Below, one piece after another: positions 18,175-56,545 of a DNA stretch of 64,000 nucleotides. Source of the DNA: an uncultured Pseudomonadales bacterium (GTDB lineage Bacteria; Patescibacteriota; Microgenomatia; UBA1400; PJMF01); contig CAYMSV010000002.1 of the NCBI GenBank assembly GCA_964393205.1, positions 226,767-290,766 on the forward strand. Reading direction: 5' to 3'. The translations under genes were made by a program, and so were the position numbers. Within the stretch, counting starts at the first letter, position 1. The number at the start of each line of letters is the position of its first letter. The notes under the pieces are model-generated. The model was not told the DNA's origin, ran no database searches, and worked only from the letters and a program-made list of their open reading frames with translations.

Positions 18175-18175
18175 T

Positions 18176-18844
18176 CTATCTTTTTATAAATTTTTGTTTT
18201 ATTTCTTTTACCTTATCAACTACTTTTTTATTTTTGCTGAGGATAATCCCACTTATTATTAGACCTACAAGAACGACAACTACAATTAGATATGTCATTA
18301 ATTGTTTAGTTCCAATATTGCTGAGCCAATTAGTTTGAGTAGCAAATAGTTTATTGTTTTCATCTTCTGCTTCAATTTCCTCAAGTCCATCTCCTAAAGA
18401 TATTGTGCTTAAAGTCACTTCTTCTTCACCTTCTTCTGATAGGCTAGAAAAATTCTCACTTTTGTCTAATTTGGCCTGAATATCATAGAAACCATCTTCT
18501 AGATTTAAAACGCTAAAGAGAACAAACCAGTTTCCATATTGATCAACGGTTGTTTCTAATTGTCTTTCTCCAAAAATGATAGTAATTTTAGCTCCTGGTT
18601 GGGCCTGACCGGCTATTTTAACCGCATCGCCTTCGGAAACACGCACTCTATCTGATTGGTTTTTATCTACAACCTCATTATTAATGGCAACATAATCTAG
18701 TACTGGTGTCGATTTTTGATTATTTTGACTAACGGACAGAGTGTTGGCCTCTAATTTATTTGGGTAGGAGAAAATAAGTCCAAGTGCAATAAGAGTGGCG
18801 ATGTTTATGAAGAGCTTTGTTTTGTTTGGATGGAATTTAGACAT
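18176..18844 (-). CDS. Hypothetical cell-surface protein, N-terminal signal plus C-terminal TM anchor with K-rich tail
   Basis: N-terminal hydrophobic segment. An acidic stretch (SEEGEEEV...EIEAEDENN). C-terminal TM LMTYLIVVVVLVGLIISGIIL, then KNKKVVDKVKEIKQKFIKR. Lies 1 nt upstream of the FN3-repeat gene on the minus strand. Confidence 0.45.
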   Translation of the reverse strand: MSKFHPNKTKLFINIATLIALGLIFSYPNKLEANTLSVSQNNQKSTPVLDYVAINNEVVDKNQSDRVRVSEGDAVKIAGQAQPGAKITIIFGERQLETTVDQYGNWFVLFSVLNLEDGFYDIQAKLDKSENFSSLSEEGEEEVTLSTISLGDGLEEIEAEDENNKLFATQTNWLSNIGTKQLMTYLIVVVVLVGLIISGIILSKNKKVVDKVKEIKQKFIKR

Positions 18845-24900: not shown

Positions 24901-26499
24901 TCCAGCAAAAGCGCCACCAGCCGCACCAGTGCCCATAATAAACTCAATATCATTAGTTACATCTCTACCCAAGAAGTAGGCTTTTCCATCGCCCTGAACC
25001 GCTACAGCAGCATTTTGTGATGAGTCAATGACAGCCGATGATTCAGGAGTGATGCCGGTTTGAGCAAATAAGGCTAACCAATTGGTGCCAGCTGCTGAAC
25101 CACTGGTGTGTAGGCTAGCAATTGGATCAGTAGTGCCAATTCCTACATTACCAACTCCATCTGGAGCTAAAACAATATCTCCATCACTGCCACTTTGGGT
25201 TTGAATCATGATCGAATCGGCCTCCAACATTAAGCTACTGCCAGTAGCAGTTTTAATTTCAGGATCATCAGTACCAAGCACCAATTCTCCTTGGTCATTT
25301 AGCATTAACAAAGTGCTATGAGTAGCAATTAAGCTAGGACGAATGCCCTGTACGGTTTCAGAGTTAATGGCGTAGGCTACAGTGCGAATTGGTTGGCGTG
25401 GTGTAAGGGTTTCAGTGCTTGGCGCTGTACCAACCGTAACTTCTAGCCAAACATTGCTATTCTCAGTAAATACACTGTCATCGATAGTTCCACCACAATC
25501 ATGATCGTCGCTACCAGCGCCACTACCAGCTCCAAGATTAGTGCTAAAAATACCGTCTTGATCTGGGGTAATAGCACAAGTATTAGATGACCAGAGCAGA
25601 TTGCCTGAAGTAACATCATCATAGAGCTCAAAAGTGACATCTGTTTCCGCAGCAATGGGAGTGCGGGCGGTATTGGTCAAGCGTCCCTGGAAAGAGAGAA
25701 TCCGATTTGGACTGGTAGGTAGGCTCGGATAAGCAAGTGACAAGACCGCTTGACCGAATTGTTGATAGGCTAGATAGCCTAAGCCGCCAATAAAAAATAA
25801 TAATGCAATAACATTAAGCGCAATAGCTAGTTTATTTGCTCGTTTACGACTTATCTTACTAGCTTGACTAACCTTGCCAAATAAGTTTCGTCTTTTCTTT
25901 GTTCCTTGTTCTTGAGTAAATTTCGCTAAAGTTTCGTCATCACTACTGAGGTTTTGAGTTTGTTGATTTTCGAATTGATCTGTTTGATTTTGAGGGCTAA
26001 TGGCTCTCCTCAAATCAATGTTTTTTGAATCTTTAGTATCAGAGTTATCTTTTTTAGGAGCAAGGGGAATTTCTGACTTGAGTAGGCCCTCTTTTTTTAA
26101 CCAATTTTTAAACTGGCTAACACTGACAATTTTACGCTTAATTGAACTATCTTTTAAACCCTTTTCTCTCTGGTACTTAGCAAAAGCTAAGAGTTTGGGT
26201 TTGCTTCCCAAACCATCTAAATTTTTTTCACCTAGAAAATCTAAAAATTGCTTGATGTCACTTTTGTAATTGCGAATTGTGGTTTTTGAGCGACCGCTCT
26301 TCTTGACTGCCAATAGGTAGTTATTTAGATTTTTTTCGATCTCTTTTGCTACGTTAAGACTATCGTTAGTGCTTTGTTCTTGTTTTTTAGTTTGGCCAAC
26401 TGCTTGATTTTGCAATAACTGCAAGAACTGTTGCTCACCGCTCAGTTTTTTTGCTTCTTTACTGTTTTGCTTGGTAATTTTGTTTATTTTGGCAGGCAT
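18955..26499 (-). CDS. Giant (2514 aa) membrane-anchored surface protein: N-terminal phage-integrase SAM-like (core-binding-like) domain, single TM, tail-fibre-like VGIGT repeats with a 430-aa exact duplication, internal S74-type intramolecular-chaperone-like motif, C-terminal coiled-coil/beta region
   Basis: Residues ~55-140 (YLLAVKKSGRSKTTIRNYKSDIKQFLDFL...SSIKRKIVSVSQFKNWLKKEGLL) resemble the XerD/phage-integrase N-terminal SAM-like domain. TM LAIALNVIALLFFIGGLGYLAY at ~aa 222-246. The extracellular part carries many (V/N)(G/S)IGTxxP motifs. A SxxNLKEDI...L(T/R)P..Y.W.....GFIAEE...I.P segment encoded at ~20560-20690 resembles the Peptidase_S74 autoprocessing module. One continuous ORF. Confidence 0.65.
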   Translation of the reverse strand: MPAKINKITKQNSKEAKKLSGEQQFLQLLQNQAVGQTKKQEQSTNDSLNVAKEIEKNLNNYLLAVKKSGRSKTTIRNYKSDIKQFLDFLGEKNLDGLGSKPKLLAFAKYQREKGLKDSSIKRKIVSVSQFKNWLKKEGLLKSEIPLAPKKDNSDTKDSKNIDLRRAISPQNQTDQFENQQTQNLSSDDETLAKFTQEQGTKKRRNLFGKVSQASKISRKRANKLAIALNVIALLFFIGGLGYLAYQQFGQAVLSLAYPSLPTSPNRILSFQGRLTNTARTPIAAETDVTFELYDDVTSGNLLWSSNTCAITPDQDGIFSTNLGAGSGAGSDDHDCGGTIDDSVFTENSNVWLEVTVGTAPSTETLTPRQPIRTVAYAINSETVQGIRPSLIATHSTLLMLNDQGELVLGTDDPEIKTATGSSLMLEADSIMIQTQSGSDGDIVLAPDGVGNVGIGTTDPIASLHTSGSAAGTNWLALFAQTGITPESSAVIDSSQNAAVAVQGDGKAYFLGRDVTNDIEFIMGTGAAGGAFAGSMTNHDFWLRTNNADRLTIKASTGRVGIGDTDPGHMLDVAGSANLSLGNEYYINDTSVLNATTLGSGVINSSLTSVGTLTSGTWNASTITEAYGGTNQISYATGDMLYASAANTLAKRTIGDTGHVLTVSGGVPVWAAPGAASNVPLSGITAATAANTIASGDLAQVWNWALTTAGKSAFTFGESSASTATGDASILTASTLASSTAIPLYVKNLGNAASFRVDDSATDTTPFVIDASGSVGIGTSTPGTKLDVVGDILVQGGGNLDTRAAGTLAIGGTTQSGLTLGRSGTNTTINGDNIILGSQATVATEAVRADRSLTITQDTNVTVTNSGVAQDLTTDRTWTLGWTGLLAIARGGTNSTATPTAGTVAYGTGDAYAFTVAGDTGQLLTSQGAGAPTWTSQGDVAVRWDSIVSPTTSDQTLTMDAFNTTWNFTSGAFRITNNSNEAFYVGGGKVGIGDINPGHMLDVAGSANLSLGNEYYINDTSVLNATTLGSGVINSSLTSVGTLTSGTWNASTITEAYGGTNQISYATGDMLYASAANTLAKRTIGDTGHVLTVSGGVPVWAAPGAASNVPLSGITAATAANTIASGDLAQVWNWALTTAGKSAFTFGESSASTATGDASILTASTLASSTAIPLYVKNLGNAASFRVDDSATDTTPFVIDASGSVGIGTSTPGTKLDVVGDILVQGGGNLDTRAAGTLAIGGTTQSGLTLGRSGTNTTINGDNIILGSQATVATEAVRADRSLTITQDTNVTVTNSGVAQDLTTDRTWTLGWTGLLAIARGGTNSTATPTAGTVAYGTGDAYAFTVAGDTGQLLTSQGAGAPTWTSQGDVAVRWDSIVSPTTSDQTLTMDAFNTTWNFTSGAFRITNNTDEALFVGGSSVGIGTITPGAKLDVVGAFGTATTAQRITNTTAAHVDNIAQIGFALNRTTGGITEVAQIRGLITDIGSTSYKGALAFLTSTDNAAPTEKMRIRADGNVGIGVTNPGEKLVVDGSAIVEKVMDYSNNAYFLDPASSGVSLTTAGSAAIGSHTPGTARLAVIGGNLGIGTTAPEALLQIGTPHASQLIGNTPAARLIGANANSTTTETLLRLVRKGATSGLFPAVADFNVFSYSSSGSGPGTQLDIVLKSTASWTETADAVVMTLKDDGTVEFPMSGGGGGGLIVGGTSSVISNTSGDITIAAASDQVSLNSGSLINFAQLLGASGSAGAPTYSFSTDSDTGMYNPASDSLGFSVGGSDALHILSDGSVAIGDTSTSGTLDVVSSATPELYIRTSATSAQDAILHLIGARTTSTTSDIGQIRFTDSSATGGELAYITARKQTTNTNEGNLLFWTTTTSGGSPTEKMRLDKDGNLGIGKTAPLTGVHSSTNVMADNALYYNYTTGGGATLCYSASTTYTGYQFIRPCASTQNLKEDIKDLGDGLDTLMQLTPREYIWREDGRKDLGFIAEEIEQINPMFATYLEGKLISVNYVHLTALLTKAIQELNLKYIDFVEKTNQRITQLNNSIATAINTSLLNAQKIVTEQIEIGGQTLDQYIKDVVQLALNNDELITSNNNLSVAEKQPTILAELLIENNLGENVASIDNQGNAQLAGNLAVEGSSQLNQLTAEEAEINSARMNTASVSGELHAQSITTDNLYTNSVDANIINGLQERLETAVAKQLADSTLLASLMNNDTTTEEYLEQVAQDNNIDLNNTNNDTDLNNDENNFISDTITAHNAYIDGYFEVNGSALIEEALAVKQTLLVGEGLTMGDGYIAFQNNENYDLSIQPAGRGRLSLMADLLVLDESGLITIGGDLKVAGTLEVAEELKVKDTLLTNLIRAENPDENIRIQLAQAVANEMGEEVIRQNNFEFIDEKGEPIATMSASGDLTLRGGLKIDQMPANASASADASASANINNNSAGQAVILAGQTEVKVKTSRLTENSMIYITPLTSTNNQVIYIKNKLLDSTFTIENEAEFIAGFDFALNKDVQFNWWIVN
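22278..24806. repeat. Perfect tandem direct duplication, two copies of ~1239 bp identical sequence, period 1290 bp (copy 1 ~22278-23516, copy 2 ~23568-24806), inside the giant CDS
   Basis: Aligned by eye at several sampled positions along the unit, with no mismatches seen where compared. For example tgttagtaattctgaaggctccgctagtaaaattccaagt occurs at 22281 and 23571, and agcgacgtcgagcatatggcctggat at 23491 and 24781. The ~51-bp junctions differ. Each copy encodes 430 aa (VGIGD(T/I)(D/N)PGHMLDVAGSANLSLGNEYY ... SGAFRITNN). Confidence 0.9.
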
Positions 26500-36898: not shown

Positions 36899-37105
36899 AT
36901 AGCAAGAAAATTGAGATTCCTTTTACTCAAGTAGTTGATTTTAGTTTTAGCATCACTATATTTTTTTATTTTGGACTAGCTGTCTTGATCAGAATGTCTT
37001 AAATTGCTCAACATTTGTCCTCAAAAATGTGTAATAATTATTTTTAATGAAAAAACCACCAGTATTTGGAGGTTTTCTTATGTTGATAATTAATTTAGTT
37101 AAAAA

Positions 37106-40100
37106 ATGAAAAAAACCAGGCTGCCCAAGGCTGTTTCGATATTAACAATTTCCACCTTGAGTCTTTTGGTCGCTATCATTTGTTTTAAACATTTTATTTC
37201 TAACTCCCAAGCGGGAAGTTTAACTATTACTCATCAGGTTGATTGGGAAGAGGGAACACTGCTCGATGTTGAAGCAGACAGTAAAGAAGGGGAAATTAAA
37301 CTATCTCCTCTCGGTACTTGGGGCGTTCAATCTCTAAAGAGCCCCAATAAACCAATTTCTGTTGGCAGTGCTTTTGGTACTGATGGTACTCATATCTACG
37401 TTGTTAGAGGCTATGGAGACATTACTTTTTGGCGTTATAATCCGGCAACAGATAGTTGGACAGATCTAGCTAATTTGCCTAGAGGTGCGTATTACGGTAT
37501 GGATTTGCAATATTTGGATGGTTATTTTTATGCTATTTTTGGCGGTTATCAACGATCTTTTGCTCGTTATTCAGTTGCTGATGATAGTTGGGAGATGTTG
37601 TCTAGTATTCCTGATTTAGTCCATCAAGGCGGATCCCTAACTAGTGATGGAACTGATATTTATGCAACCAGAGGTAATAATACTCAAGACTTTTATAAAT
37701 ATAGCGTAGATACAGATTCATGGATGCCGCTGGCAGGACCACCAGCTGCTTTGAGAAATGGAGCAGATATTACTTATATTGATGGTTATATTTACACCCC
37801 AAGGGGGAGTAATACGACCACTTTTTATCGCTATTCTGTGGCAAGCAATAGTTGGGAAAGTTTAACTAATGTTCCAGGAACTATGTATGATGATATTGAT
37901 GCTACTACCGATGGGACTTATTATTATCTACCTCGTCAATATAATTCTACAAGTTTTTATCGCTACGATCCTAGTGACAATAGTTGGACAACTTTAGCAG
38001 AAGCACCACTCACATCTCGATACGCTGGTGTCCAATATGTGGAGTCAACAGACTTAATTTATTTCTTCAGAGGTAATGGTGATTATCGTTTTTGGAAATA
38101 TGATCCTAGCACTGATGAATTTTTAGGTCCTAGTGAAGCACCGAGCACTTTAGCTACTGGTTCAGACATGGTTTATCATGATGAATATTTCTATGTGCCT
38201 AGAGGAGCTAATGGTCAAATTTTTTATCGTTTCGATCCTAGTGCTAATAACTGGACCGAATTGGAAAACGCTCCAGAGCGTTTTAATGATGATGTTAAAG
38301 GAGAAGCAGTTGGTGACTATTTATATTTTTTTAGGGGTAGTAATACGCTATCTTTTTATCGTTACCACCCAACTAGTAACACCTGGTCTACACTAGCTGA
38401 TGCCCCTGCCACTGTCAGATTTGGCGCTTCATTAGTTTATCCAGGAACTGGTGATTACCTATATGCTACTAGGGGTGCAACAACAAGCACTTTTTGGCGT
38501 TATCATATTCCCACTGACACTTGGCTGACAGACGCATCAGATATTCCAGACAATGTAAGAGCCTCTTATGGATCAAGGTTAATCTCAGATGGTACTGATA
38601 TCTTTTTTACAGCTGGTATTGGTATTAAGCGAATGTTCAAATACACTGTGGCAACAGGTCTTTGGACTGAATTAGCTGCACTGCCGTATTCTCCATATTA
38701 TGGTTCAGATATCAGTTATGCTAATGGCAAAATTTTAGCTCTAGCAGGTTACTATACTCCAGATTTATATGAATACACCATCTCAAGCAACTCTTGGAAA
38801 AAGTTGGATTCGCTAGACACTTATGGACCGAATGATGTTGGAACTTATAACGGAGCCTCGATAGCATATGACCCCGTAGGAGAAAGTTATTATGTAACTA
38901 GAGGTTATGGTCAAGCTGAGTTGCTTAATTATACGCCTGGCAGCACCACTTATCCAATAACTGGCACTTGGACTTCTCCTGCTTATGATTTGGAATATGT
39001 GGAGTCTTGGTCGGGTATCAGCATTGGTCAAGAAACTCCAGATGATACAATTTTGTTATTCCAATCTAGAACTAGTAGTGATGGTCTGAACTGGACTGAG
39101 TGGCAAGAAATTACCAATGACAACGTAGTCTCTCCAGTCAATAGATTTCTGCAATTAAAGATAACTTTTTCCAGCTCTAGCGATCATGAACTAACCCCCG
39201 TTGTCAGAGATATTAGTTTCAATTATGTCGGTGATCAATCACCGCCAGCCGCACCAGAAAATTTTCTTGGTTTTTCTCGTCAAATCAGTGGCGAATCCTT
39301 AACGAGTGAGAGTTCTTATCGATTTACCAATCCCTATTTTACTTGGGATGCTGCCTTAGATGAACAAACAGCAGTTCAAGGTTATTATGTGTATTTTGGA
39401 CAAAATGAGGACGCTAATCCAGAGGAAGATGGCTTTTTTCAATTAAATACTAATTTCCAAGTTAATCAAACTTTGGAAACTGGCACTTATTATTTGAAAG
39501 TGGCTTCGCAAGATTTAGCCGGTCATACTAGTTCGACAACAACTGGTTTTATATATGATTATCGTGGTATTTCTCCAGCACTAACAAGTACTTTTAGTGA
39601 AACGGGAGATTTTTTAGGAGAAGTCGATTCGATTAATATTAACAACAACTATTTACAATTGAGTAACAACAGTGAAGGTTTTTGGTTGGAAGAGAGACTG
39701 ACTTTTCCACCGGCAAGCATTCAATATGCAGGTAAAAATGCTGCATATTTAGCAGAAGAGGGAAAATTATATGTACTACGTGGAGCAAATAATGCTACCT
39801 TTTATGAATATGATGTGAGTGCGGATACTTGGTCAACACTCGCTGATGCTCCTGGAGCGGTCAGGTTTGGAGGCGGAGTAGTAGAGGGTCCTCCGGGATA
39901 TTTATATGCAGCTCGTGGCAATAACTCTACTGATTTTTGGCGCTATGACATTGAAGCCAATACTTGGGACGCTGATATTGCTAGTGCACCTTTAACCATT
40001 AGTTATGGAGGTTCTCTGGTTTTTGATGGTGAACAATATATTTATGTATTGAGGGGTAACAATTCCAACAATTTCTGGCGCTATGATACTTTTTCAGATG

Positions 40101-43100
40101 AATGGCAGACATTGAGTTCGGTTCAGTTTGGTGCTCCTTCGGACTCTATTAATGATTATGCTCATATTTCTGCTGATATAACCATTGATCGAGAAAACCA
40201 ACTAATTTATGCTACTGCAGGTAATTTAAGACATGGTTTTTCAGTTTATGATATTAATACTGATGCTTGGACAGTTTTGCCAGATACGCCGACCTTAGCT
40301 TATTTTGGCTCGGCGCTTGAATATGACTCTAATACTGAGGCGGTTTATTACACGGCTGGTTATTATTCTCACCACTTTTTTAAATACGATGTTGGTGCTC
40401 AAGAATGGATTCAACTGAGCTCTTCTCCAGACCGTTTTTATTATGGTGGTGGTTTAACTTTAGTGGATGATTATTTATTAGCCTTTAGAGGTGAAAACAA
40501 CACTGGTTTTTATAAATATGATATTGCAAAAGATAGTTGGCTGGTTCCTAATAGAGGCTTATTTGGTCGAGTGTTTGAAACAAATAGTGTGTTTACCACT
40601 AACTATGGGGCAGACATAGTGATGGGAGATGGTGATAATTTTTATTTAACGAGAGGTAACTATGCTGATCAATTTGTGCGCTGGAATCAAACCACAGGTG
40701 CGATCACTAAATTAGCCAACACTCCTGCAGGCTTGCATAATGGTGCTGGTTTGGTTTATGACAACAATCAAAACAAAATTTATTTAACTGGTGGTACCTA
40801 TAATCAAAAATTTTATGTTTATGACATAACTAGCAATGTTTGGAGCGAAGAAACGGCAGATCCTACACCTCTAGTGACAGGCTATGGTTCTTCTATGGTT
40901 TATGATGGAGAACGCTACATTTATCTTAATCGTGGTAGTCATACCACCTCTTTTTATCGTTTTGATACACAAGGTGAAAGTGGAGCAAAGTGGGAAACAT
41001 TAACTAACGCACCCGCTGGTCTTGGTTATGGAGCTAAACTTTTATTTAGAGATGATCTTATTTATACGATGAGGGGTCAGAATGTGGCCAACAACCCCCT
41101 TTATTTTTATGATACCAACACTGAATCTTGGAATACTACTTTATCACCAATGCTATCACCCATCTACAACGATGCTTTTTTAGTTGATGGTAATGAAGGT
41201 CATTTTTATCTAGCTAGGGCTCATAATACTAGCGAATTTTACCGCTATTCATTAACTGGTGATTCGTGGCAACAACTAGCTGATATTCCAGCTCAATTAT
41301 ATGCAGGAGCTTCTGCTGAAAGTAACTTGGAAAACAAAATCTTTGTTTTAACTGGTTCTGGAACTAATAGTTATAGTGATGCTTTATACACCTATGTAAT
41401 GGAAACTGAAGACTCGGCCTTTGTTGAGGAGGGTTCTTATATTTCTCAAACTCATGATTTGGGTGGAGTTTATCGTTGGGCGGGCTTGGAAGTTACTCAA
41501 ACTACACCAAGTAACACTAGTTTAAATATTGAAACTCGCACCTCAGTTGATGGAGAAACTTGGTCAGATTGGGCAGGAGTAACTCAAGCCAAAGAACTTG
41601 TTAATGATCGATATTCCTATCGTATTAATTCTCAAGCCAACCGCTATATTCAAATTAAATTCGAGTTTTCGTCTAGTGATGGTGTATCTTCTCCTAGAGT
41701 AGAAGACTATACAATTAATTATTTCCAAGATCTTGATCCTCCTTCTAATCCACAAGACGAGGGTTTAAGTATTTATAGTCAGGAAGAAGAAGGAGAGCTT
41801 TTAGTTTCTAATGTTTGGTACAACCACGCCAATCCATATTTTGAGTGGCCAGAACCTGAAGAGAGTTATGGAGCTAGCGATACAGCAATTGGTTCTGGAG
41901 TAGCAGGTTATTATGTTTATTTTGGTTCAGATGAACTAGCTGATCCGGCTTTAGATGGTCAGTTTCAGGTAGACAATAGTTTTGAAGCAGATTCGCTAGA
42001 AGATGGAGAGATTTACTATCTGTTAATTAAAACAAGTGATGAGTCGGGCAACATTAATGAAAATATTTGGAACCCTTTTATTTATAAATATGATTCTAGA
42101 GATCCTGCTGCTCCAGAAAATTTAACGGCTGATCCTTCTGGATACACTGCTTTTAATAATTTTAATTTCTCTTGGGACGCTGTGATTCCAGCTGGCGCTG
42201 ACATTGTGGCTTATTGTTACAAAACTGGAGCTAGTGAGGGTGAATATGCTAGTGATCAGTGTATAGAGAGCACGACGGTTGAAGGCATTCCCTCATATAA
42301 GGTAGGAGTGAATACTTTTTATGTTCGAGCTAAAGATCAGGCAGGTAATTATAGTGCTTATGCTAATATTAATTATTTTTATGCTGATATTTCGGCTGCA
42401 CCTGCTCCGCCTCAAAATTTACAAGTTGAACCAGAAACTAGCACCAATAACTTATTTAGTTTTACTTGGGACGAACCAATGTCTGGTACTTTCTTGGGTT
42501 CAGCTTCAAATCTATCCTATCATTATAGTGTTAATGCGCTACCTACTGCTTTTAGCACTTCTACCACTAGTTTAAAATATTTAAATCCTGGTGCCTATGC
42601 AACTTTACCAGGTGAGAACATTTTGTATGTAGCTACTAAGGATGAAGCAGGTAATATTAATTACAGTAACTATGCTCAAGTTTCCTTTTTTGCTAACACT
42701 GTCGCTCCGGGTATTCCTCTTGATGTAGAGATTGCTGACGTTTCGGTCAAAAGTACATCCTCTTGGCGACTAGCTATTTCTTGGGATGAGCCAACAGACG
42801 CGGGTAGCGGAGTAGACAACTATCAAGTATATCGCTCTTTTGATGGAGAAAATTTTGATTTCCATTCTTCCAGCGGTGGTACTTCTTTTGTAGATACAAG
42901 GCTGACTCAAAAAACTCACTACTATCAAATTAAAGCTTGTGACAACACCAATAATTGTGGTGCTTTTTCTGATACGGTCAGTCTCTATCCAGACGGTCGT
43001 TATACAACAGCGGCTGAATTAGTCTCTGGTCCGACAGTCACAGATATTACTACAAAAAAAGCCATAGTTAGTTGGGCCACTGCTAGAACCAGTGATTCAA

Positions 43101-44233
43101 GAGTAGCTTTTGGCACTAGTTCTGGTGAATATGCAGAAACTGAGGTTTCTAGCTCTGAACATGTTTCCAATCACTCTCTAGAATTGGATAATCTATCTCC
43201 AGGAACTACTTATTTTTATGTTACTCGTTGGGTAGATGAGGATGGTAATCGAGGGGAGTCTGAGGAAGCGACCTTTAGCACCTTGCCGCCACCATCAACC
43301 ATGGAGCCGGTTGCCAAAAGTGTTGGTTTAGATTCGGCCCTGATCGAATTTACTTCAAAAAATGCTAGTAAAATTAGGCTTTATTATGGTGAGAGTTCAG
43401 CTTTTGGTGGACTTAAAGAAATTGCTACTGGAACAGCAGAAACTGTCCATACTGTAGAGCTAGATGGTTTAACAGATGGTACTAAATATTATTTTAAGAT
43501 CAATGCGGTGGATATCGATGGCACAGAGTATGAAGGAGAAATTCATGCATTCGAAACCTTACCTAGACCAGAAGTGTCTGATGTTGAAATAACTCAGGTA
43601 GTAGGAACAGCACAAACCACGCTTTTATTGCGCTGGACTGCCAATACTGAGGTTAGTTCAATTGTTACCTATTTTCCTTCTGATCGTCCGGATTTAGCTA
43701 GAGATGAGGTTAATATTGCGCTGAAAAGTGGTCGGCACCGTATGATTCTATACAATTTAGAACCACAAAGAGCTTATACCATCATTATTCGTGGAACAGA
43801 TGTGGCTGGCAATGAGGCTATCAGTGAACCACAGTTAATTACTACAGCTTCAGACACCAGGCCACCCCAAGTTTTAGATCTTAATGTTGAGTCAGAGATT
43901 ATTGGTGAGGGAGAAGAAGCTAAGGCGCAACTGATTGTTACCTTTAAGACTGATGAGCCAGCTAGTTCTCAGGTTGAATATGGTGAAGGTACAGGCACTA
44001 GTTATTCACAAAAAACCCAAGAAGATGGATCACTTAAAGCCAACCACTTAATTGTTATCTCTGGCCTGACTCCTGCAAAAATTTATCATTTGCGCGCCAT
44101 TGCTAAAGATGAAGCTGGTAACCTAGGTGAATCATTAGATAAAGTAGTGGTCACACCTAAAGCCACAGAGAATGCTCTAGATCTAGTATTAAATAATTTA
44201 CAATTTGCTTTTGGCTTTTTGAATAGAAACTAA
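37106..44233 (+). CDS. Giant (2375 aa) secreted/anchored surface protein: two arrays of ~47-aa Kelch-like beta-propeller repeats followed by multiple FN3 / purple-acid-phosphatase-N-like domains
   Basis: Signal/anchor MKKTRLPKAVSILTISTLSLLVAIICF. Repeats of the form ...Y..RG.....F(W/Y)RY......W..L...P... recur roughly every 47 aa at ~aa 80-600 and ~870-1400. The C-terminal ~900 aa hold FN3-like modules (P.AP.NL.......F.W.........V..Y.VY and ...V.LDGL..GT.YYF). Confidence 0.6.
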   Translation: MKKTRLPKAVSILTISTLSLLVAIICFKHFISNSQAGSLTITHQVDWEEGTLLDVEADSKEGEIKLSPLGTWGVQSLKSPNKPISVGSAFGTDGTHIYVVRGYGDITFWRYNPATDSWTDLANLPRGAYYGMDLQYLDGYFYAIFGGYQRSFARYSVADDSWEMLSSIPDLVHQGGSLTSDGTDIYATRGNNTQDFYKYSVDTDSWMPLAGPPAALRNGADITYIDGYIYTPRGSNTTTFYRYSVASNSWESLTNVPGTMYDDIDATTDGTYYYLPRQYNSTSFYRYDPSDNSWTTLAEAPLTSRYAGVQYVESTDLIYFFRGNGDYRFWKYDPSTDEFLGPSEAPSTLATGSDMVYHDEYFYVPRGANGQIFYRFDPSANNWTELENAPERFNDDVKGEAVGDYLYFFRGSNTLSFYRYHPTSNTWSTLADAPATVRFGASLVYPGTGDYLYATRGATTSTFWRYHIPTDTWLTDASDIPDNVRASYGSRLISDGTDIFFTAGIGIKRMFKYTVATGLWTELAALPYSPYYGSDISYANGKILALAGYYTPDLYEYTISSNSWKKLDSLDTYGPNDVGTYNGASIAYDPVGESYYVTRGYGQAELLNYTPGSTTYPITGTWTSPAYDLEYVESWSGISIGQETPDDTILLFQSRTSSDGLNWTEWQEITNDNVVSPVNRFLQLKITFSSSSDHELTPVVRDISFNYVGDQSPPAAPENFLGFSRQISGESLTSESSYRFTNPYFTWDAALDEQTAVQGYYVYFGQNEDANPEEDGFFQLNTNFQVNQTLETGTYYLKVASQDLAGHTSSTTTGFIYDYRGISPALTSTFSETGDFLGEVDSININNNYLQLSNNSEGFWLEERLTFPPASIQYAGKNAAYLAEEGKLYVLRGANNATFYEYDVSADTWSTLADAPGAVRFGGGVVEGPPGYLYAARGNNSTDFWRYDIEANTWDADIASAPLTISYGGSLVFDGEQYIYVLRGNNSNNFWRYDTFSDEWQTLSSVQFGAPSDSINDYAHISADITIDRENQLIYATAGNLRHGFSVYDINTDAWTVLPDTPTLAYFGSALEYDSNTEAVYYTAGYYSHHFFKYDVGAQEWIQLSSSPDRFYYGGGLTLVDDYLLAFRGENNTGFYKYDIAKDSWLVPNRGLFGRVFETNSVFTTNYGADIVMGDGDNFYLTRGNYADQFVRWNQTTGAITKLANTPAGLHNGAGLVYDNNQNKIYLTGGTYNQKFYVYDITSNVWSEETADPTPLVTGYGSSMVYDGERYIYLNRGSHTTSFYRFDTQGESGAKWETLTNAPAGLGYGAKLLFRDDLIYTMRGQNVANNPLYFYDTNTESWNTTLSPMLSPIYNDAFLVDGNEGHFYLARAHNTSEFYRYSLTGDSWQQLADIPAQLYAGASAESNLENKIFVLTGSGTNSYSDALYTYVMETEDSAFVEEGSYISQTHDLGGVYRWAGLEVTQTTPSNTSLNIETRTSVDGETWSDWAGVTQAKELVNDRYSYRINSQANRYIQIKFEFSSSDGVSSPRVEDYTINYFQDLDPPSNPQDEGLSIYSQEEEGELLVSNVWYNHANPYFEWPEPEESYGASDTAIGSGVAGYYVYFGSDELADPALDGQFQVDNSFEADSLEDGEIYYLLIKTSDESGNINENIWNPFIYKYDSRDPAAPENLTADPSGYTAFNNFNFSWDAVIPAGADIVAYCYKTGASEGEYASDQCIESTTVEGIPSYKVGVNTFYVRAKDQAGNYSAYANINYFYADISAAPAPPQNLQVEPETSTNNLFSFTWDEPMSGTFLGSASNLSYHYSVNALPTAFSTSTTSLKYLNPGAYATLPGENILYVATKDEAGNINYSNYAQVSFFANTVAPGIPLDVEIADVSVKSTSSWRLAISWDEPTDAGSGVDNYQVYRSFDGENFDFHSSSGGTSFVDTRLTQKTHYYQIKACDNTNNCGAFSDTVSLYPDGRYTTAAELVSGPTVTDITTKKAIVSWATARTSDSRVAFGTSSGEYAETEVSSSEHVSNHSLELDNLSPGTTYFYVTRWVDEDGNRGESEEATFSTLPPPSTMEPVAKSVGLDSALIEFTSKNASKIRLYYGESSAFGGLKEIATGTAETVHTVELDGLTDGTKYYFKINAVDIDGTEYEGEIHAFETLPRPEVSDVEITQVVGTAQTTLLLRWTANTEVSSIVTYFPSDRPDLARDEVNIALKSGRHRMILYNLEPQRAYTIIIRGTDVAGNEAISEPQLITTASDTRPPQVLDLNVESEIIGEGEEAKAQLIVTFKTDEPASSQVEYGEGTGTSYSQKTQEDGSLKANHLIVISGLTPAKIYHLRAIAKDEAGNLGESLDKVVVTPKATENALDLVLNNLQFAFGFLNRN

Positions 44234-44235
44234 TA

Positions 44236-44643
44236 ATGAAAAAAATTAAAAAAAACACTTGTTTTTCTAAATTCTGTAAAGCAATGCTGGCTGTTGCATT
44301 AATTATTGGTTTATTTTTGGGTTGGTTGATTTTTAATGCCAAAATAAGATCAATAGAAAGACACATTGAAGTGACTTTTGTTAGTCCTCATCAGGCTTTA
44401 GTTTTTTGGAAAAGTAATAGTCAGTCTTTAGGTTATATTAAATCTGGTGAACACAAGTATTGGCGCAGAACAAAAACTTATCAGACAAGCAGTGAGCCAG
44501 GAGATGTACACGCGGTTCTATTAGAAAATGTGCCGATTGAGGGTTTATATATAAGTGTTCATAATGATAACGATAGTGTTCACTATTTTCCAGACATTAT
44601 TGAAATTCGCTATCATCCCGAGTCAATGGAGAATGAGTTATGA
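44236..44643 (+). CDS. Small membrane-anchored protein with one FN3/PAP-N-like domain
   Basis: TM AMLAVALIIGLFLGWLIF, then VTFVSPHQALVFWKSNSQSLGYIKSGE, similar to the terminal FN3 modules of the upstream giant protein. Begins 3 nt after its stop and overlaps the ABC ATPase start by 4 bp. Confidence 0.45.
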   Translation: MKKIKKNTCFSKFCKAMLAVALIIGLFLGWLIFNAKIRSIERHIEVTFVSPHQALVFWKSNSQSLGYIKSGEHKYWRRTKTYQTSSEPGDVHAVLLENVPIEGLYISVHNDNDSVHYFPDIIEIRYHPESMENEL

Positions 44644-45467
44644 AAACTCAAACAAGCAACACATCAAACACTAGCAAACCAATCACTTTAGAGATTAAGG
44701 ATGTTCGTAAAACTTTTAGTATTGGTGATAGCGAAATAGAAATCATTAAAGGTGTGAGCTTTAATGTTCGGCAAGGTGATTTTGTTATTGTCTTTGGTCC
44801 CTCTGGTTGTGGTAAAAGCACAATTTTAAATATTTTGTTAGGGTTGGAGCCTCCTACCCAGGGGACGGTTAATTTTCTCAGTAAAGATCTTTATAAAATG
44901 ACAGAGGATAATCGAGCCCAAGTGCGTAAAAAAGAAGTTGGTACCGTTTACCAGCAGTCTAACTGGATCAAAGCTTTGACAGTAATGGAGAACGTGTCTT
45001 TTCCTTTAACTTTGCAGGGTGTAGATCAAGAAGAAAGGCGAAAACGAGCCGAAGAAGCGTTGGCGCTTGTTGAGATGACTCAAGCTATTGACCAAATACC
45101 GACAGAATTATCGGCTGGACAGCAACAGCGAATATCTTTAGCCAGAGCTTTGATTACCAAACCAAGTTTGCTGGTGGCTGATGAGCCAACTGGTAATTTG
45201 GATTCAAAGGCTAGTGAAGACATTATGGAACTTTTTAAGAGCTTTAATCAAAGGGGACACACTGTGGTGATGGTTACTCATGACTTAGAGTATTTAAAAT
45301 ACGCCTCACGCTCAATCCAAATATCCGATGGGGAAATAGTACAAGAACATAGAGCTAATTCAGAAACACTTAAAAAATTGTCTGTTTCGAAACGTGGCAA
45401 TATTGATTCCTCAAAAAAGGTTGAAAAAGAACAAGTGAGCGATGAAAAGAATGATGAAAAAAATTAA
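44640..45467 (+). CDS. ABC transporter ATP-binding protein (MacB/LolD/FtsE-like)
   Basis: Walker A GPSGCGKST. Q-loop. ABC signature LSAGQQQRISLARAL. Walker B LLVADEPTGNLD. H-loop VTHD. Confidence 0.85.
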   Translation: MKTQTSNTSNTSKPITLEIKDVRKTFSIGDSEIEIIKGVSFNVRQGDFVIVFGPSGCGKSTILNILLGLEPPTQGTVNFLSKDLYKMTEDNRAQVRKKEVGTVYQQSNWIKALTVMENVSFPLTLQGVDQEERRKRAEEALALVEMTQAIDQIPTELSAGQQQRISLARALITKPSLLVADEPTGNLDSKASEDIMELFKSFNQRGHTVVMVTHDLEYLKYASRSIQISDGEIVQEHRANSETLKKLSVSKRGNIDSSKKVEKEQVSDEKNDEKN

Positions 45468-48039
45468 TATTCAACCAGCTAAGATTGCTAAATTTTTTAA
45501 AAACTTTGTAGTTGAACTCTTGGTATTGCTTAAGTTTTTCTTCCTTTTAGCAGTGATGTCACTTTTTAGTCTTGTTGATTTAATTTACAAAATTTTATCA
45601 ATCATTCCCGGTTTGAAAAAATTCTTAAAAAAGAAAGTTAGTCTAAGAAAAAAGATTTTAGATTCGATTGATATTGCTCGTGAGGGTGAAATGACTGGTA
45701 GAGATATTATTCTTTTGGCTACTAAACATTTAAAAGTGAAAAAAGCCAGAACAGCAATTACTGTTGGTGGTATGACCATTGGTTTTGGTTCAATTATCTT
45801 TTTATTATCACTTGGTTATGGATTTGAAAGGTTAGTAGTTTCTCGAGTGACTAACTTAGGAGAGATGAAGCAAGTCGATCTCAGTATTGGTCAAGCTAGT
45901 TCTTTGACTTTTAGTGATCAAGTGATGAAGCAAATCTTAGATATTGAAGCAGTAGAAGAAGCTCTACCAATCGTTTCTTCGGTAGCCAGAGTGAGTTACC
46001 AAAACTCTGTTTCTGATGTGGTGGCTTATGGTGTCACTACTCGCTTTTTGACTGAGTCGGCTACTCGACCTAGCAGGGGCTCTATTTTTGAAAATGAACA
46101 ATATTCTGCTGAAGAATTTTTGAAGATGCAGTTAGAAAAAGAAAAGCAAGAGGCAGAATCAGCAGAGGAAGATGAGGATGGCGAAGTAGCTGGTATAAGC
46201 ATTGAAGTCAATGAAATGGTTGCTATGGGTCAAGAAAGTGCTCAATTAAGTTACTCGATTTATCCTTTGGTTTGGAAAGCAGTTTACGAAAGTCCTTCGC
46301 CCCAAGCTGAGATTATTGGCTACACTAAGCGACAGCCAGGAGAACAGCGAGCTACTGAGGTTTGGGGGCAACCTCATCCTGCCGATAAAGAAAAATTAGT
46401 TCAAAATGCAAATGGCAAACAGTTTAGCACTTGGATTCTCGACGATTTTCCATTGTGGGTGAAAACCACTTGCTCAGCTCAAGATTTGAATTGTATTGAC
46501 GGTGAATACATGAGTCTAAAAGAAGCTGCTCACCAAGCAGTCAAAACCGGATACATCACCAAAGATTCTGTTACCTTGGAAAGGTTTAATATTATTTCGG
46601 TTTCAAAACCGGTATTTGTAGAGGGACAAAGTTTGGGAGAAGTTGAAATAAAAGTTGATCATGACGATTGGTATCAACTTTATAGTCAGCCTAAAACTTC
46701 TTCTCTGATTTTGCTTGAATTCACAAAATTTAGCAAACCTTTGACAGAAACAATTAAGGCAGAATTGGTCATTGGAGAAATGTATTATGGAAAATATGGT
46801 TCAGTTGCTGAAAATGCTTCAGGAAGAAAGTTAGGTTACTGGTTAAAAGCTCAGTGGCCAGTTTGGGAACGGATTGATTGTGGTGAAGGTTGTGACCAAC
46901 ACTTTCTAAGTAAGAGAGATAGTAATAATTCTCAAGAAATGCTCACGGCCTACATACGAGCAGAAGATTTAGAATTATTAGATTTACCTCTTAGTTTGGC
47001 TCGTTCAGGTCAGGTTTTGGGAGAGAGTACAGTCGCAGCTGAAGAAGATGAACTTGCGCTTGATACGGCTACGGTCAGTAGCGGTTTAACAGCAACAGCA
47101 TCAGCCGGAGTTAGTCAAAGCGGAGATGCAGATATTAATAGTTTATTGGCAGAATTTAGCGAAGACGAAGATTTAGAATTAGTTGAAATTATATCGCAAC
47201 TTGAAACGGTTAATCGCGTTGAAAAAATAGTTATGCCTTTTAGAAGTGACGCAAAAAAAGTAGCCTTAGTTAATAAATCAATGTTAAATCTCTTAGGAAT
47301 TGATGAAAATTCAGCTTTGGGAGAAACTTTTACTGCCACTTTAGTTTTTGATGGTAAATTATTTAACCAGTCTGAGTCACTAGTTGAATCAGACGAAGTA
47401 GAGATGACTATTGCTGGAGTTTTGCCAGATGATAAGACTCCAGCCTTCTATTTGCCATTTAGCGATGTTAAGGGTACCGGTATTAGCAATTACTCTCAGG
47501 CAAAAATTATTATTGGTGATCAGGATAAGTTAGCTGCAAGCAGGCAGGAAATTGAAGGAATGGGTTTTCGGACTAATTCGGTGGTAGATACAGTAGAGAG
47601 AATAAATAACTTATTCAAGAGTCTGAGACTAGGCTTATTAGTCTTTGGCTTAGTGGCTTTAAGTGTGGCGGCACTAGGAATGTTTAACACTTTAACGGTG
47701 TCTTTATTGGAGAAAACTAGAGAAGTGGGTTTGATGAAGGCGATAGGTATGAAATCAGAAGAGGTCAAGATGTTATTTTTAGCAGAATCAGTAATTATGG
47801 GTTTCTTTGGTGGAATTTTAGGTTTAATTTTTGGCTTTTTACTCGGTCAGGTTTTAAGTATAGTTTTAAGCAGTATTGCGGTAGCCAGTGGTTTTGATCC
47901 AATTGCAGCCACTTATATTCCTATTAATTTAGCTTTAGCCATTATTGGATCTTCTTTTTTGATTGGAGTTGGTACTGGTTTTTATCCGGCATATCGGGCC
48001 ACTCATATTTCAGCCTTGAATGCTTTGAGGTATGAATAA
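45442..48039 (+). CDS. ABC transporter permease, FtsX/MacB-type, with ~600-aa extracytoplasmic domain
   Basis: A TM near aa 100-125, then a long hydrophilic domain. The C-terminal three-TM FtsX-like module (LGLLVFGLVALSVAALGMFNTLTVSLLEKTREVGLMKAIG...). An extra N-terminal hydrophobic hairpin lies at ~aa 19-58. Confidence 0.75.
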   Translation: MKRMMKKINIQPAKIAKFFKNFVVELLVLLKFFFLLAVMSLFSLVDLIYKILSIIPGLKKFLKKKVSLRKKILDSIDIAREGEMTGRDIILLATKHLKVKKARTAITVGGMTIGFGSIIFLLSLGYGFERLVVSRVTNLGEMKQVDLSIGQASSLTFSDQVMKQILDIEAVEEALPIVSSVARVSYQNSVSDVVAYGVTTRFLTESATRPSRGSIFENEQYSAEEFLKMQLEKEKQEAESAEEDEDGEVAGISIEVNEMVAMGQESAQLSYSIYPLVWKAVYESPSPQAEIIGYTKRQPGEQRATEVWGQPHPADKEKLVQNANGKQFSTWILDDFPLWVKTTCSAQDLNCIDGEYMSLKEAAHQAVKTGYITKDSVTLERFNIISVSKPVFVEGQSLGEVEIKVDHDDWYQLYSQPKTSSLILLEFTKFSKPLTETIKAELVIGEMYYGKYGSVAENASGRKLGYWLKAQWPVWERIDCGEGCDQHFLSKRDSNNSQEMLTAYIRAEDLELLDLPLSLARSGQVLGESTVAAEEDELALDTATVSSGLTATASAGVSQSGDADINSLLAEFSEDEDLELVEIISQLETVNRVEKIVMPFRSDAKKVALVNKSMLNLLGIDENSALGETFTATLVFDGKLFNQSESLVESDEVEMTIAGVLPDDKTPAFYLPFSDVKGTGISNYSQAKIIIGDQDKLAASRQEIEGMGFRTNSVVDTVERINNLFKSLRLGLLVFGLVALSVAALGMFNTLTVSLLEKTREVGLMKAIGMKSEEVKMLFLAESVIMGFFGGILGLIFGFLLGQVLSIVLSSIAVASGFDPIAATYIPINLALAIIGSSFLIGVGTGFYPAYRATHISALNALRYE

Positions 48040-48041
48040 AG

Positions 48042-48113
48042 TGCCTCCACCAAGAATCGAACTTGGATTTAAGGTTTAGGAAACCTTCGTTCTATCCATT
48101 GAACTATGGAGGC
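48042..48113 (-). tRNA. tRNA-Arg (anticodon CCT), 72 nt, no encoded CCA
   Basis: Reverse complement GCCTCCATAGTTCAATGGATAGAACGAAGGTTTCCTAAACCTTAAATCCAAGTTCGATTCTTGGTGGAGGCA. A 7-bp acceptor stem, D arm GTTC/GAAC, anticodon stem AAGGT/ACCTT with loop TTCCTAA, T arm CCAAG/CTTGG with TTCGATT loop. Confidence 0.85.
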
Positions 48114-48156: not shown

Positions 48157-48233
48157 TGGTCGGAGATGGCGGACTCGAACCGCCGACCTCGGCGTCCCGA
48201 ACGCCGCACTCTAGCCATCTGAGCTAATCTCCG
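48157..48233 (-). tRNA. tRNA-Pro (anticodon CGG), with encoded 3' CCA
   Basis: Reverse complement CGGAGATTAGCTCAGATGGCTAGAGTGCGGCGTTCGGGACGCCGAGGTCGGCGGTTCGAGTCCGCCATCTCCGACCA. Acceptor CGGAGAT/ATCTCCG. Anticodon stem CGGCG/CGCCG with loop TTCGGGA. T arm GGCGG/CCGCC with TTCGAGT. Confidence 0.85.
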
Positions 48234-56333: not shown

Positions 56334-56545
56334 AGTTCCTTTTTATCAATTTTTTTAATTAAAAAATAAGACCAGTTGCTTGGCCAAAAACTAAAGAAAG
56401 GGAAAAATAAATTTTACTTCCTCGGTGTGATGATTAAGCCCTGAGGCCCACACTGTCTTTGGACAACAGAGAAATTATAACAGAGAATACTTGGCTGACA
56501 AGGCGCATTTACAAGTTTTAGTGAATGAGGCATAATAAAAATTAG

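Follow-up and report, generated by a model that had tools for sequence, protein, structure and literature searches.

Organization of the gene cassette

The window analyzed in this study is a stretch of 64,000 nucleotides (nt) of contig CAYMSV010000002.1 (assembly GCA_964393205.1, positions 226,767 to 290,766 of the forward strand). It contains a cassette of four genes, which encode a giant secreted protein of 2375 amino acids (aa), a small membrane protein of 135 aa, and the ATPase (275 aa) and the permease (865 aa) of an ATP-binding cassette (ABC) transporter of the type VII superfamily. All four open reading frames (ORFs) are located on the plus strand and are tightly packed (37106-44233, 44236-44643, 44640-45467 and 45442-48039). 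A preliminary description, made from the sequence alone, had proposed four co-directional genes, and the coordinates of these ORFs were reproduced exactly. Of the junctions given there, the 4-nt overlap was recovered (ATGA, between the genes of the small protein and the ATPase), whereas the spacer between the genes of the giant and the small protein is 2 nt instead of 3 nt. Three ATGs are possible starts of the permease gene, so that its overlap with the ATPase gene amounts to 26, 17 or 14 nt; the identical database protein of the permease has 862 aa, which implies a start at position 45451.

Upstream of the cassette, a gap of 207 nt separates it from the ndk gene. Downstream, two tRNA genes (48042-48113 and 48160-48233) are located on the minus strand; the first begins 3 nt past the stop codon of the permease gene and marks the 3' boundary. 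Because of the gap after ndk and the tRNA genes on the opposite strand, the cassette is a well-delimited unit. Genes coding for LeuRS, ComEC, an M16 peptidase, NDK, MreB and a PEGA-domain protein are its neighbors in the window, which has a GC content of about 37% and whose nearest relatives are Woesebacteria, Pacebacteria and other Patescibacteria of the Microgenomates type. A scan for promoters and terminators at the cassette gave no signal better than in shuffled sequences.

The giant secreted protein

The giant protein (37106..44233, +), regarded here as the putative partner or client of the ABC system, showed significant Pfam matches to Kelch_6 (E-value 1.1e-39, 133.5 bits), Kelch_1 (1.6e-24, 85.4 bits), fn3 (7.9e-19, 68.1 bits) and Pur_ac_phosph_N (PF16656; 2.6e-14, 54 bits), and individual segments matched as well. 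Similarity to Kelch, FN3 and purple acid phosphatase N-terminal (PAP-N) domains, as suggested in the preliminary description, was thus found by profile search.

At the N-terminus, residues 1-36 (37106..37213, +) show the features of a Sec-type signal peptide, namely a basic n-region, a hydrophobic core of 19 residues and the sequence SQA followed by G, ending at position 37213. This agrees with the signal or anchor formerly proposed for this end. The hydrophobic segment spans residues 6-32; AXA-like sites occur in the homologues as well (SQA, VRA, ARA), and 41 of 53 complete proteins with the conserved C-terminal tail described below possess an N-terminal hydrophobic segment. The signal peptide is presumably cleaved. 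Apart from it, a hydrophobicity scan revealed no transmembrane (TM) segment in the giant protein.

The signal peptide is followed by a first Kelch block of 12 repeats (residues 87-626; 37364..38983, +), which were detected with a hidden Markov model (HMM) derived from the protein itself (independent E-values from 1e-10 to 1e-21 for each repeat) and which also match Pfam Kelch_1, Kelch_6 and NANM. Next to this block, an unassigned beta-rich domain (residues 627-740) and an Ig-like domain (741-865) were found (38984..39700, +), the latter with a weak match to Big_13. Residues 627-740 matched nothing in Pfam or among the PDB sequences, and the PDB sequence search was also empty for the entire segment of beta-rich and Ig-like domain. 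A second Kelch block (residues 880-1500; 39743..41605, +) comprises 11 detected repeats, located at residues 880-1402, and one degenerate unit further on, recognized by eye; residues 938-1146 match Pfam Beta-prop_ATRN-LZTR1. Again, a beta-rich domain, about 110 aa long like the first, precedes an Ig-like domain (residues 1510-1750). They open a region (residues 1510-2349; 41633..44152, +) that continues as a stalk of FN3/PAP-N-like domains with segment matches to fn3 and Pur_ac_phosph_N; these domains make up the C-terminal 600 residues of the protein. The head unit of about 830 aa, consisting of Kelch block, beta-rich domain and Ig-like domain, is internally duplicated (BLASTP 6e-77, 30% identity over about 800 aa).

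In the preliminary description, two blocks of about 11 repeats of about 47 aa were interpreted as two multi-bladed propellers. The blocks, the repeat consensus and the repeat size (about 44-47 aa in both blocks) were recovered, whereas the count is nearer to 12 per block. With approximately 12 repeats per block, an arrangement as four propellers of six blades each seems more likely than two giant propellers.

The conserved C-terminal tail

The last residues of the giant protein (2350-2375; 44153..44230, +) form a conserved tail, TPKATENALDLVLNNLQFAFGFLNRN. Over 72 non-identical sequences the consensus of these 26 residues is ITPKAT(E/D)NAL(D/N)LVxxNLxxxFGFLG, and the longer consensus from the same set reads HLRa.SkD.agN.g.SiDtVtITPKATenALdLVi.nL...FGFlg; another 2-8 residues separate it from the stop codon. 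Divergent tails retain the pattern [IL]T[PG][KRQ]xxx[SN][AV][LIF][DQ][LI][IV][IV]xxLxxxFG[FW]L. When a profile of the tail was compared with 1.84 billion representative proteins, 1372 matches with E-values ≤ 1e-3 and 401 with E-values ≤ 1e-10 were obtained. Among the best 150 matches, 127 showed the full profile at the extreme C-terminus, in proteins of up to 4418 aa; the remainder were generic Ig-like repeat proteins that matched the FN3 part only. A search with the C-terminal 112 aa of the giant protein yielded only 20 short fragments.

The tail is covered by no Pfam or NCBIfam model. Models of the known C-terminal sorting signals (LPXTG, PEP-CTERM, PGF-CTERM, MYXO-CTERM) did not match, and no C-terminal TM segment is present. 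No NCBIfam sorting-domain model matched the giant protein either; a match to MXAN_2561 is located on the FN3 domain at residues 2275-2355 and lies below the cut-off. The periodicity of the tail is helical and not that of a beta-strand (moderate hydrophobic moment of 0.32-0.37). Judged from these sequence features, the tail is a candidate docking or sorting peptide.

The small membrane protein and the ABC transporter

The second gene (44236..44643, +) encodes a type II membrane protein of 135 aa with an N-terminal TM anchor (residues 8-40) and one extracytoplasmic, beta-sandwich-like domain. Neither Pfam nor NCBIfam contains a matching model, and a homologue search with this protein gave four matches. 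It had been described as an echo of one of the FN3 domains of the giant protein. Pfam did not support this, but a weak hhalign match was found between the profile of the 135-aa family and the last FN3 domain of the giant protein (E-value 2.9e-4, probability 40%). At E-values of up to 1, Pfam likewise offered no fold for the small protein, the beta-rich domains or the insert in the permease ectodomain (see below), apart from marginal matches to NADH5_C and Paratox without significance.

The ATPase (44640..45467, +) is of the FtsE/LolD/MacB type (ABC_tran, 1.5e-35) and its catalytic motifs are intact: Walker A (GPSGCGKST), signature (LSAGQ), Walker B with the catalytic glutamate (LLVADEPT) and H-loop (VTHD). 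Beyond the ABC domain it carries a low-complexity extension of about 40 residues rich in Lys, Glu and Ser (residues ~236-275; 45345-45464), which overlaps the start of the permease gene. Homologous ATPases range from 249 to 318 aa. The top-scoring NCBIfam models are FtsE, LolD and MacB, all of them below their equivalog cut-offs.

The permease (45442..48039, + or from 45451) matched FtsX (PF02687; 3.9e-17, 62.8 bits, cut-off 25.5) and MacB_PCD (PF12704; 2.9e-12, 47.7 bits, cut-off 27). Its structure was modeled with AlphaFold2 (AF2) from an alignment of 99 sequences, with a mean predicted local distance difference test (pLDDT) score of 86. According to this model and the hydrophobicity profile, TM1 (residues ~101-136) is followed by an ectodomain (~137-713), as expected from the approximately 600 extracytoplasmic residues noted before, and by three C-terminal TM helices. 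In the FtsX domain (47581..48036, +), the AF2 helices 714-757, 759-767, 772-815, 828-855 and 858-864 correspond to TM2, the coupling helix, TM3, TM4 and a C-terminal helix. Conservation in this domain is high (0.79-0.90, with 0.90 for the coupling helix 759-767), and TM1 and TM2 are also among the most conserved parts. In front of the canonical TM1, a family-specific hydrophobic helix (residues 12-52; 45475..45597, +) was detected. The hydrophobic element formerly described here as a hairpin does exist (residues 18-58); it may be a hairpin or, as in the AF2 model, a single helix of 41 residues. This helix is present in both classes of the family (occupancy 0.89-1.0), with a poorly conserved sequence (0.37).

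Foldseek searches with the permease returned LolCDE, MacB and YtrEF at the top and, furthermore, HrtBA, FtsEX and BceAB, with E-values from 2e-13 to 1e-4; YbbAP (9ge7, 9ge6) was also among the matches. Together with the Pfam matches, this fold bears out the former assignment to the MacB/FtsEX type. With four TM helices, a Porter subdomain, a coupling helix and a cognate, intact ATPase, the permease belongs to the type VII superfamily.

The alignment occupancy separates two classes of permeases. Long permeases (class I, 820-900 aa) contain two beta-rich modules of about 130 aa each, short ones (650-750 aa) only the first. In the permease of the window, module 1 (residues 255-385; 46204..46596, +) is the one present in all family members; module 2 (residues 390-520; 46609..47001, +) is its tandem duplicate and specific for class I. 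A helix of low complexity and an acidic, disordered linker border these modules, whose nearest structural neighbors appear to be SH3b cell-wall-binding domains; Foldseek of the insert against the PDB was not significant, and the highest-probability matches were enzymes bearing SH3b domains. No SH3_3- or SH3_5-type match was found in Pfam, and a sequence search with the insert returned nothing from the PDB. In module 1, 16 columns are conserved to at least 90% throughout the family, including G309, W331 and a nearly invariant cysteine pair (C344/C351). The large ectodomain is regarded as a normal Porter/Sabre domain with two inserted modules, which are called SH3b-like with moderate confidence. 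These modules differ from the SH3b domains of lysostaphin and phage endolysins and from the SH3b-like domain at the C-terminus of TagH, a subunit of the teichoic acid ABC transporter, in their length of about 130 aa, an extension, the cysteine pair and the missing SH3 match at the sequence level. Their ligand could be peptidoglycan or the tail of the partner protein.

Relation to FtsEX

The top score of the ATPase with the FtsE model and the SH3b-like modules, which point to peptidoglycan, are in line with a regulator of cell wall remodeling similar to FtsEX. In this case, a peptidoglycan-bound ABC transporter would control a wall-modifying activity, and the giant protein would serve as its effector or scaffold. 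The position of the cassette near mreB and the PEGA-domain gene in the window, with Mur ligase genes further on in the related locus L001 (70% permease identity), also fits. As in FtsEX with EnvC, PcsB or CwlO, the ATPase is separate, the permease has four TM helices and the FtsX fold and presumably forms a homodimer, and the partner is encoded nearby. In FtsEX, a helical element retains the partner, on which ATP-driven movements act without transporting it (PMC7668044, PMC5985334).

The scores of the cassette proteins, however, miss the equivalog cut-offs widely (FtsE 209.7 bits against 264.85; FtsX models 32-34 bits against 225-255). The ectodomain comprises about 580 aa with a Sabre region and the SH3b-like inserts, whereas FtsX has only a small Porter/X-lobe domain. 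Pfam and NCBIfam searches detected no LytM, CHAP, NlpC/P60 or amidase domain and no coiled coil in the giant or the small protein; in place of a hydrolase or activator of the EnvC, PcsB, CwlO or RipC type, the cassette encodes a propeller/FN3 protein of 2375 aa, with the tail as candidate docking element. In addition, the neighborhood of cell wall genes is not kept in other loci. A role as wall-remodeling regulator is hence improbable.

Conservation of the cassette in Patescibacteria

The cassette is widespread in the Patescibacteria. Relatives of the permease were searched in one genome per species of the Genome Taxonomy Database (GTDB). From 389 relatives, 80 loci were fetched, and 81 unique loci were available in total. 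When the 60 C-terminal residues of the giant protein were used as HMM, 78 ORFs in 87 loci matched. A large ORF with the tail was located next to the permease gene in every unique GTDB locus whose upstream sequence exceeded 2.5 kb (65 loci). In the reciprocal direction, a metagenome scan seeded with the tail detected a permease-family ORF in 50 of the 52 loci that extend for 2 kb or more past the stop codon of the tail, mostly downstream and on the same strand. The distance between tail ORF and permease is about 720-800 nt in the short class, where only the ATPase gene lies between them, and about 1130-1250 nt in the long class, which has the genes of the small protein and the ATPase in this place. 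Tail proteins and the permease family are thus almost obligatorily adjacent in both search directions, regardless of heads or flanking genes.

At 70% permease identity (L001), the four genes occur in the same order and with the same flanks; at about 44% identity, the order is kept beside genes for ribosomal proteins or tRNA synthetases. The genes stay together in relatives down to 35-45% identity in spite of different flanks, as the linked cassette of the preliminary description implies. In one of the relatives with 44% identity (L002), the cassette directly adjoins rplJ/rplL. Distant relatives of the short class (37-39% identity over 55-60% of the query) adjoin proteins of 1469-1969 aa, which carry Laminin_G_3 or DUF2341 heads instead of Kelch repeats and the same FN3/PAP-N C-terminus. 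Family-wide, the heads of the partner are exchanged (Kelch, LamG, DUF2341, EPTP), while the base of the stalk and the tail are retained. The coupling of the ABC pair to a propeller/FN3 protein, as formerly suggested, therefore holds for the C-terminal stalk and the tail and not for the propellers.

The traits of the subclasses co-vary, in that permeases with the second module are accompanied by the small protein and by a partner with double-Kelch head. The small protein was found in 27 loci, always between the genes of the giant protein and the ATPase and only in class I. Seventeen orthologues of the giant protein were identified in this class, all in the same gene position and with a length of 2367-2413 aa. 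Compared with the protein of the window, their amino acid identity is 50% over the Kelch blocks and 55-66% over stalk and tail, and the stalk is the best-conserved part within class I. The permease identity in the same subclass is about 44%, so the giant protein is conserved equally well or better. This suggests that, in the long class, it is a structurally constrained component of the envelope and not a fast-evolving adhesin.

Individual loci show rearrangements. In L046 (657-12115), two tail-bearing proteins are encoded divergently from one ABC pair; in L017 (8957-12337), ATPase and permease are fused to a protein of 1126 aa; and in L005 the ATPase is encoded elsewhere. In each of these three loci the linkage of tail protein and permease is kept. 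The tail HMM matched at two places in L142, and the permease-family ORF of L151 and L153 has the tail-bearing ORF on its downstream side. Many public records of metagenome-assembled genomes with the cassette bear titles such as 'uncultured Pseudomonadales', 'Gammaproteobacteria', 'Bdellovibrionales' or 'TM6', labels which do not seem to fit the sequence content.

The adjacency also bears on the possibility that the transporter is an ordinary efflux or resistance pump of the MacB, BceAB or YknYZ type, whose genes only happen to lie in the operon of a surface protein. Database labels such as 'antimicrobial peptide transport system permease', generic as they are, suggest this, and the fold is common to exporters of drugs and peptides. 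MacAB-TolC, Spr0693-0695 and YknXYZ possess MacB_PCD and FtsX domains and the Porter/Sabre ectodomain fold like the cassette permease, and in the fusion of L017 the ATPase is placed at the N-terminus as in MacB. However, an almost universal two-way adjacency over 35-100% identity and through rearrangements would hardly be expected for such a pump, nor would the co-variation of permease, small protein and head features. No adaptor of the MacA/HlyD family was found in the window or in those related loci with listed genes, and the cassette lacks a BceRS-type sensor. The score with PRK10535 reached 70.6 bits against a cut-off of 966. Furthermore, SH3b-like modules, the extra N-terminal helix and the linkage to a giant protein distinguish the system from MacAB, whose substrates are small molecules or peptides. 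A simple efflux function is accordingly very improbable.

Two other readings, a role in anti-phage defense and a phage origin, were also considered and rejected. For anti-phage defense, PADLOC gave generic P-loop and LolE-TM similarity only, and tblastn of the permease against phage records resulted in distant FtsX-domain matches covering at most 24% of the query.

Proposed function of the cassette

Type VII ABC systems perform mechanical work outside the membrane on a protein partner, and every characterized one has a dedicated extracytoplasmic partner, such as EnvC, LolA, MacA or TesA (PMC5985334, PMC12646458, PMC7668044, PMC8333309). It is quite possible, if somewhat short of probable, that the cassette is a conserved envelope module of the Patescibacteria, in which a dedicated type VII ABC transporter works on the giant extracytoplasmic protein and not on a small solute. 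After export by the Sec system, the tail and the last FN3 domain would dock on the permease dimer, for which the stalk cavity and SH3b-like module 1, which is highly conserved, are candidate sites. The stalk of the giant protein would then start at the membrane, and the propeller heads would be displayed outside the cell wall. Binding of peptidoglycan by the SH3b-like modules, if it occurs, would attach the complex to the wall, or else module 1 might itself be the receptor of the tail. Binding and hydrolysis of ATP would be passed on via the stalk helices by mechanotransmission, as in FtsEX-EnvC, and could serve to load or hold the fiber or to switch its conformation. In the long class, the anchored FN3-like protein of 135 aa may act as an additional adaptor at the base of the fiber.

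Some points weigh against this proposal. The amphipathicity of the tail is borderline in comparison to shuffled sequences (3-7%). Cleavage of the signal peptide was assumed; without cleavage, the protein would be anchored by its N-terminus, with inverted geometry. Moreover, operon linkage, as seen in genome sequences, would look alike for stable anchoring and for transient handling, that is export, extraction or release.

Such transient handling is the essence of an extractor or exporter similar to LolCDE. Here, the amphipathic tail would reside in the outer leaflet or in the cavity of the transporter and would be extracted once at the expense of ATP; the protein would be pushed or handed on through the wall to its destination in the wall, the S-layer or the medium, and the transporter would be an assembly or release factor instead of a permanent anchor. 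The evidence from synteny and from the tail supports this as it supports anchoring. The best Foldseek matches are complexes of LolCDE with lipoprotein (E-value 2e-13), and LolCDE and YbbAP pull hydrophobic moieties from the membrane (PMC8333309, PMC12646458). LolCDE also recognizes the terminal anchor of a Sec-exported protein and moves it out of the membrane plane by means of ATP. One ABC pair beside two tail proteins, as in L046 and L142, is what would be expected of a handler that recognizes a signal. On the other hand, the tail with its mean hydrophobicity of 0.34-0.45 is too polar for stable membrane insertion, and its strongly conserved polar residues (D, N, E and Q) suggest recognition between proteins. 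No LolA-like acceptor is conserved in the cassette and no lipobox was seen, nor is it apparent how a released protein would be retained. The client signal would be C-terminal and proteinaceous, in contrast to the N-terminal triacyl group recognized by LolCDE; each locus has a single permease gene instead of a LolC/LolE pair, and TIGR02212 (lolCE) scored 69.3 bits against 362.45. Altogether, a Lol-like extractor is rather unlikely, though clearly more credible than wall regulation or efflux.

Since the equivalog cut-offs of FtsEX, LolCDE and MacAB are not reached and the partners that these systems require are not found, the transporter is not an orthologue of any of them. For the proposed envelope module, two further systems are instructive. 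The giant, repeat-rich adhesin LapA is retained at the cell surface in LapE, a component of a type I secretion system. This resembles the cassette in concept, as a terminal retention element engages a transporter encoded alongside (for a related review, see PMC8277102). The Lap system differs in that it belongs to a diderm and uses an ABC exporter with the type IV fold; retention depends on a module at the N-terminus and secretion on a signal at the C-terminus, without a Sec signal. The protein of the cassette, in contrast, is Sec-dependent, its ABC transporter is of type VII and the conserved element is the C-terminal tail. The second system, YbbAP-TesA, is a type VII ABC transporter that recruits a specific extracytoplasmic protein and acts on envelope components (PMC12646458). 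YbbP is a duplicated permease with 8-10 TM helices, though, its partner is a small lipid hydrolase, and neither the tail motif nor SH3b-like modules occur there.

In comparison to the described systems, the giant FN3 partner with Kelch or LamG head, the conserved C-terminal tail, the SH3b-like inserts and the extra N-terminal helix are new. A search of the full-text literature revealed no description of the cassette.

Further features of the window

Upstream of the giant gene, a stretch at about 37040-37105 is conserved in the relative with 70% identity (L001). It contains a hairpin-like element, AAAACCACC...GG(A/C)GGT, followed by a T-rich run, and could be the terminator of ndk or a leader element. 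Only in the window, an ORF of nine codons preceded by GGAGG ends in an ATGA overlap with the start of the giant gene. An interpretation of GGAGG as Shine-Dalgarno sequence of this upstream ORF was rejected, because the arrangement is not conserved in the relative with 70% identity; GGAGG is more likely part of the conserved hairpin.

A second giant ORF of 2514 aa (18955-26499, minus strand) is unrelated to the cassette and lacks the tail motif. Its product has a Phage_int_SAM_1-like domain at the N-terminus, on the cytoplasmic side, a TM segment at about residues 235-258 and a huge extracytoplasmic part with Peptidase_S74 (endosialidase chaperone); the GC content of this region is 0.41-0.43 in comparison to about 0.36. 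Directly downstream (17026-18844, minus strand), a protein of 382 aa with two Ig_Rha78A_N domains and one of 222 aa without Pfam match are encoded. These two genes may form another operon for surface proteins. Finally, an Rfam L10_leader was detected at 56351-56480 (minus strand), upstream of rplJ/rplL-like ORFs.

Significance for the Patescibacteria

The Patescibacteria, or candidate phyla radiation (CPR), represent a large share of bacterial diversity and combine tiny genomes with an attached lifestyle that depends on the cell surface. To our knowledge, almost nothing is known about how they hold or use giant surface proteins. The cassette provides a concrete link in this respect, as it joins a conserved tail with a dedicated type VII ABC transporter and with modules resembling wall-binding domains. 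Up to now, giant adhesin-like proteins of these bacteria have been listed only generically, as candidates (PMC13059738). The near-constant length (2367-2413 aa) and the 50-66% identity of the giant protein across deep lineages suggest a core structure of the envelope and not a variable adhesin.

If the proposed envelope module is correct, a giant structural protein would extend the short list of partners of type VII ABC systems (EnvC, LolA, MacA, TesA), and a hitherto unannotated motif would be defined by which hundreds of giant proteins can be recognized as clients of a single machine. A more far-reaching idea, doubtful at present, is that the tail is a novel kind of sorting or anchoring signal, with the type VII ABC transporter as its dedicated receptor or motor, and that both attach and power giant surface structures in the Patescibacteria. 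If so, the cassette would be an ABC-driven counterpart of the sortase and exosortase systems, and the structures might be the fibers or the surface layer seen on CPR cells.

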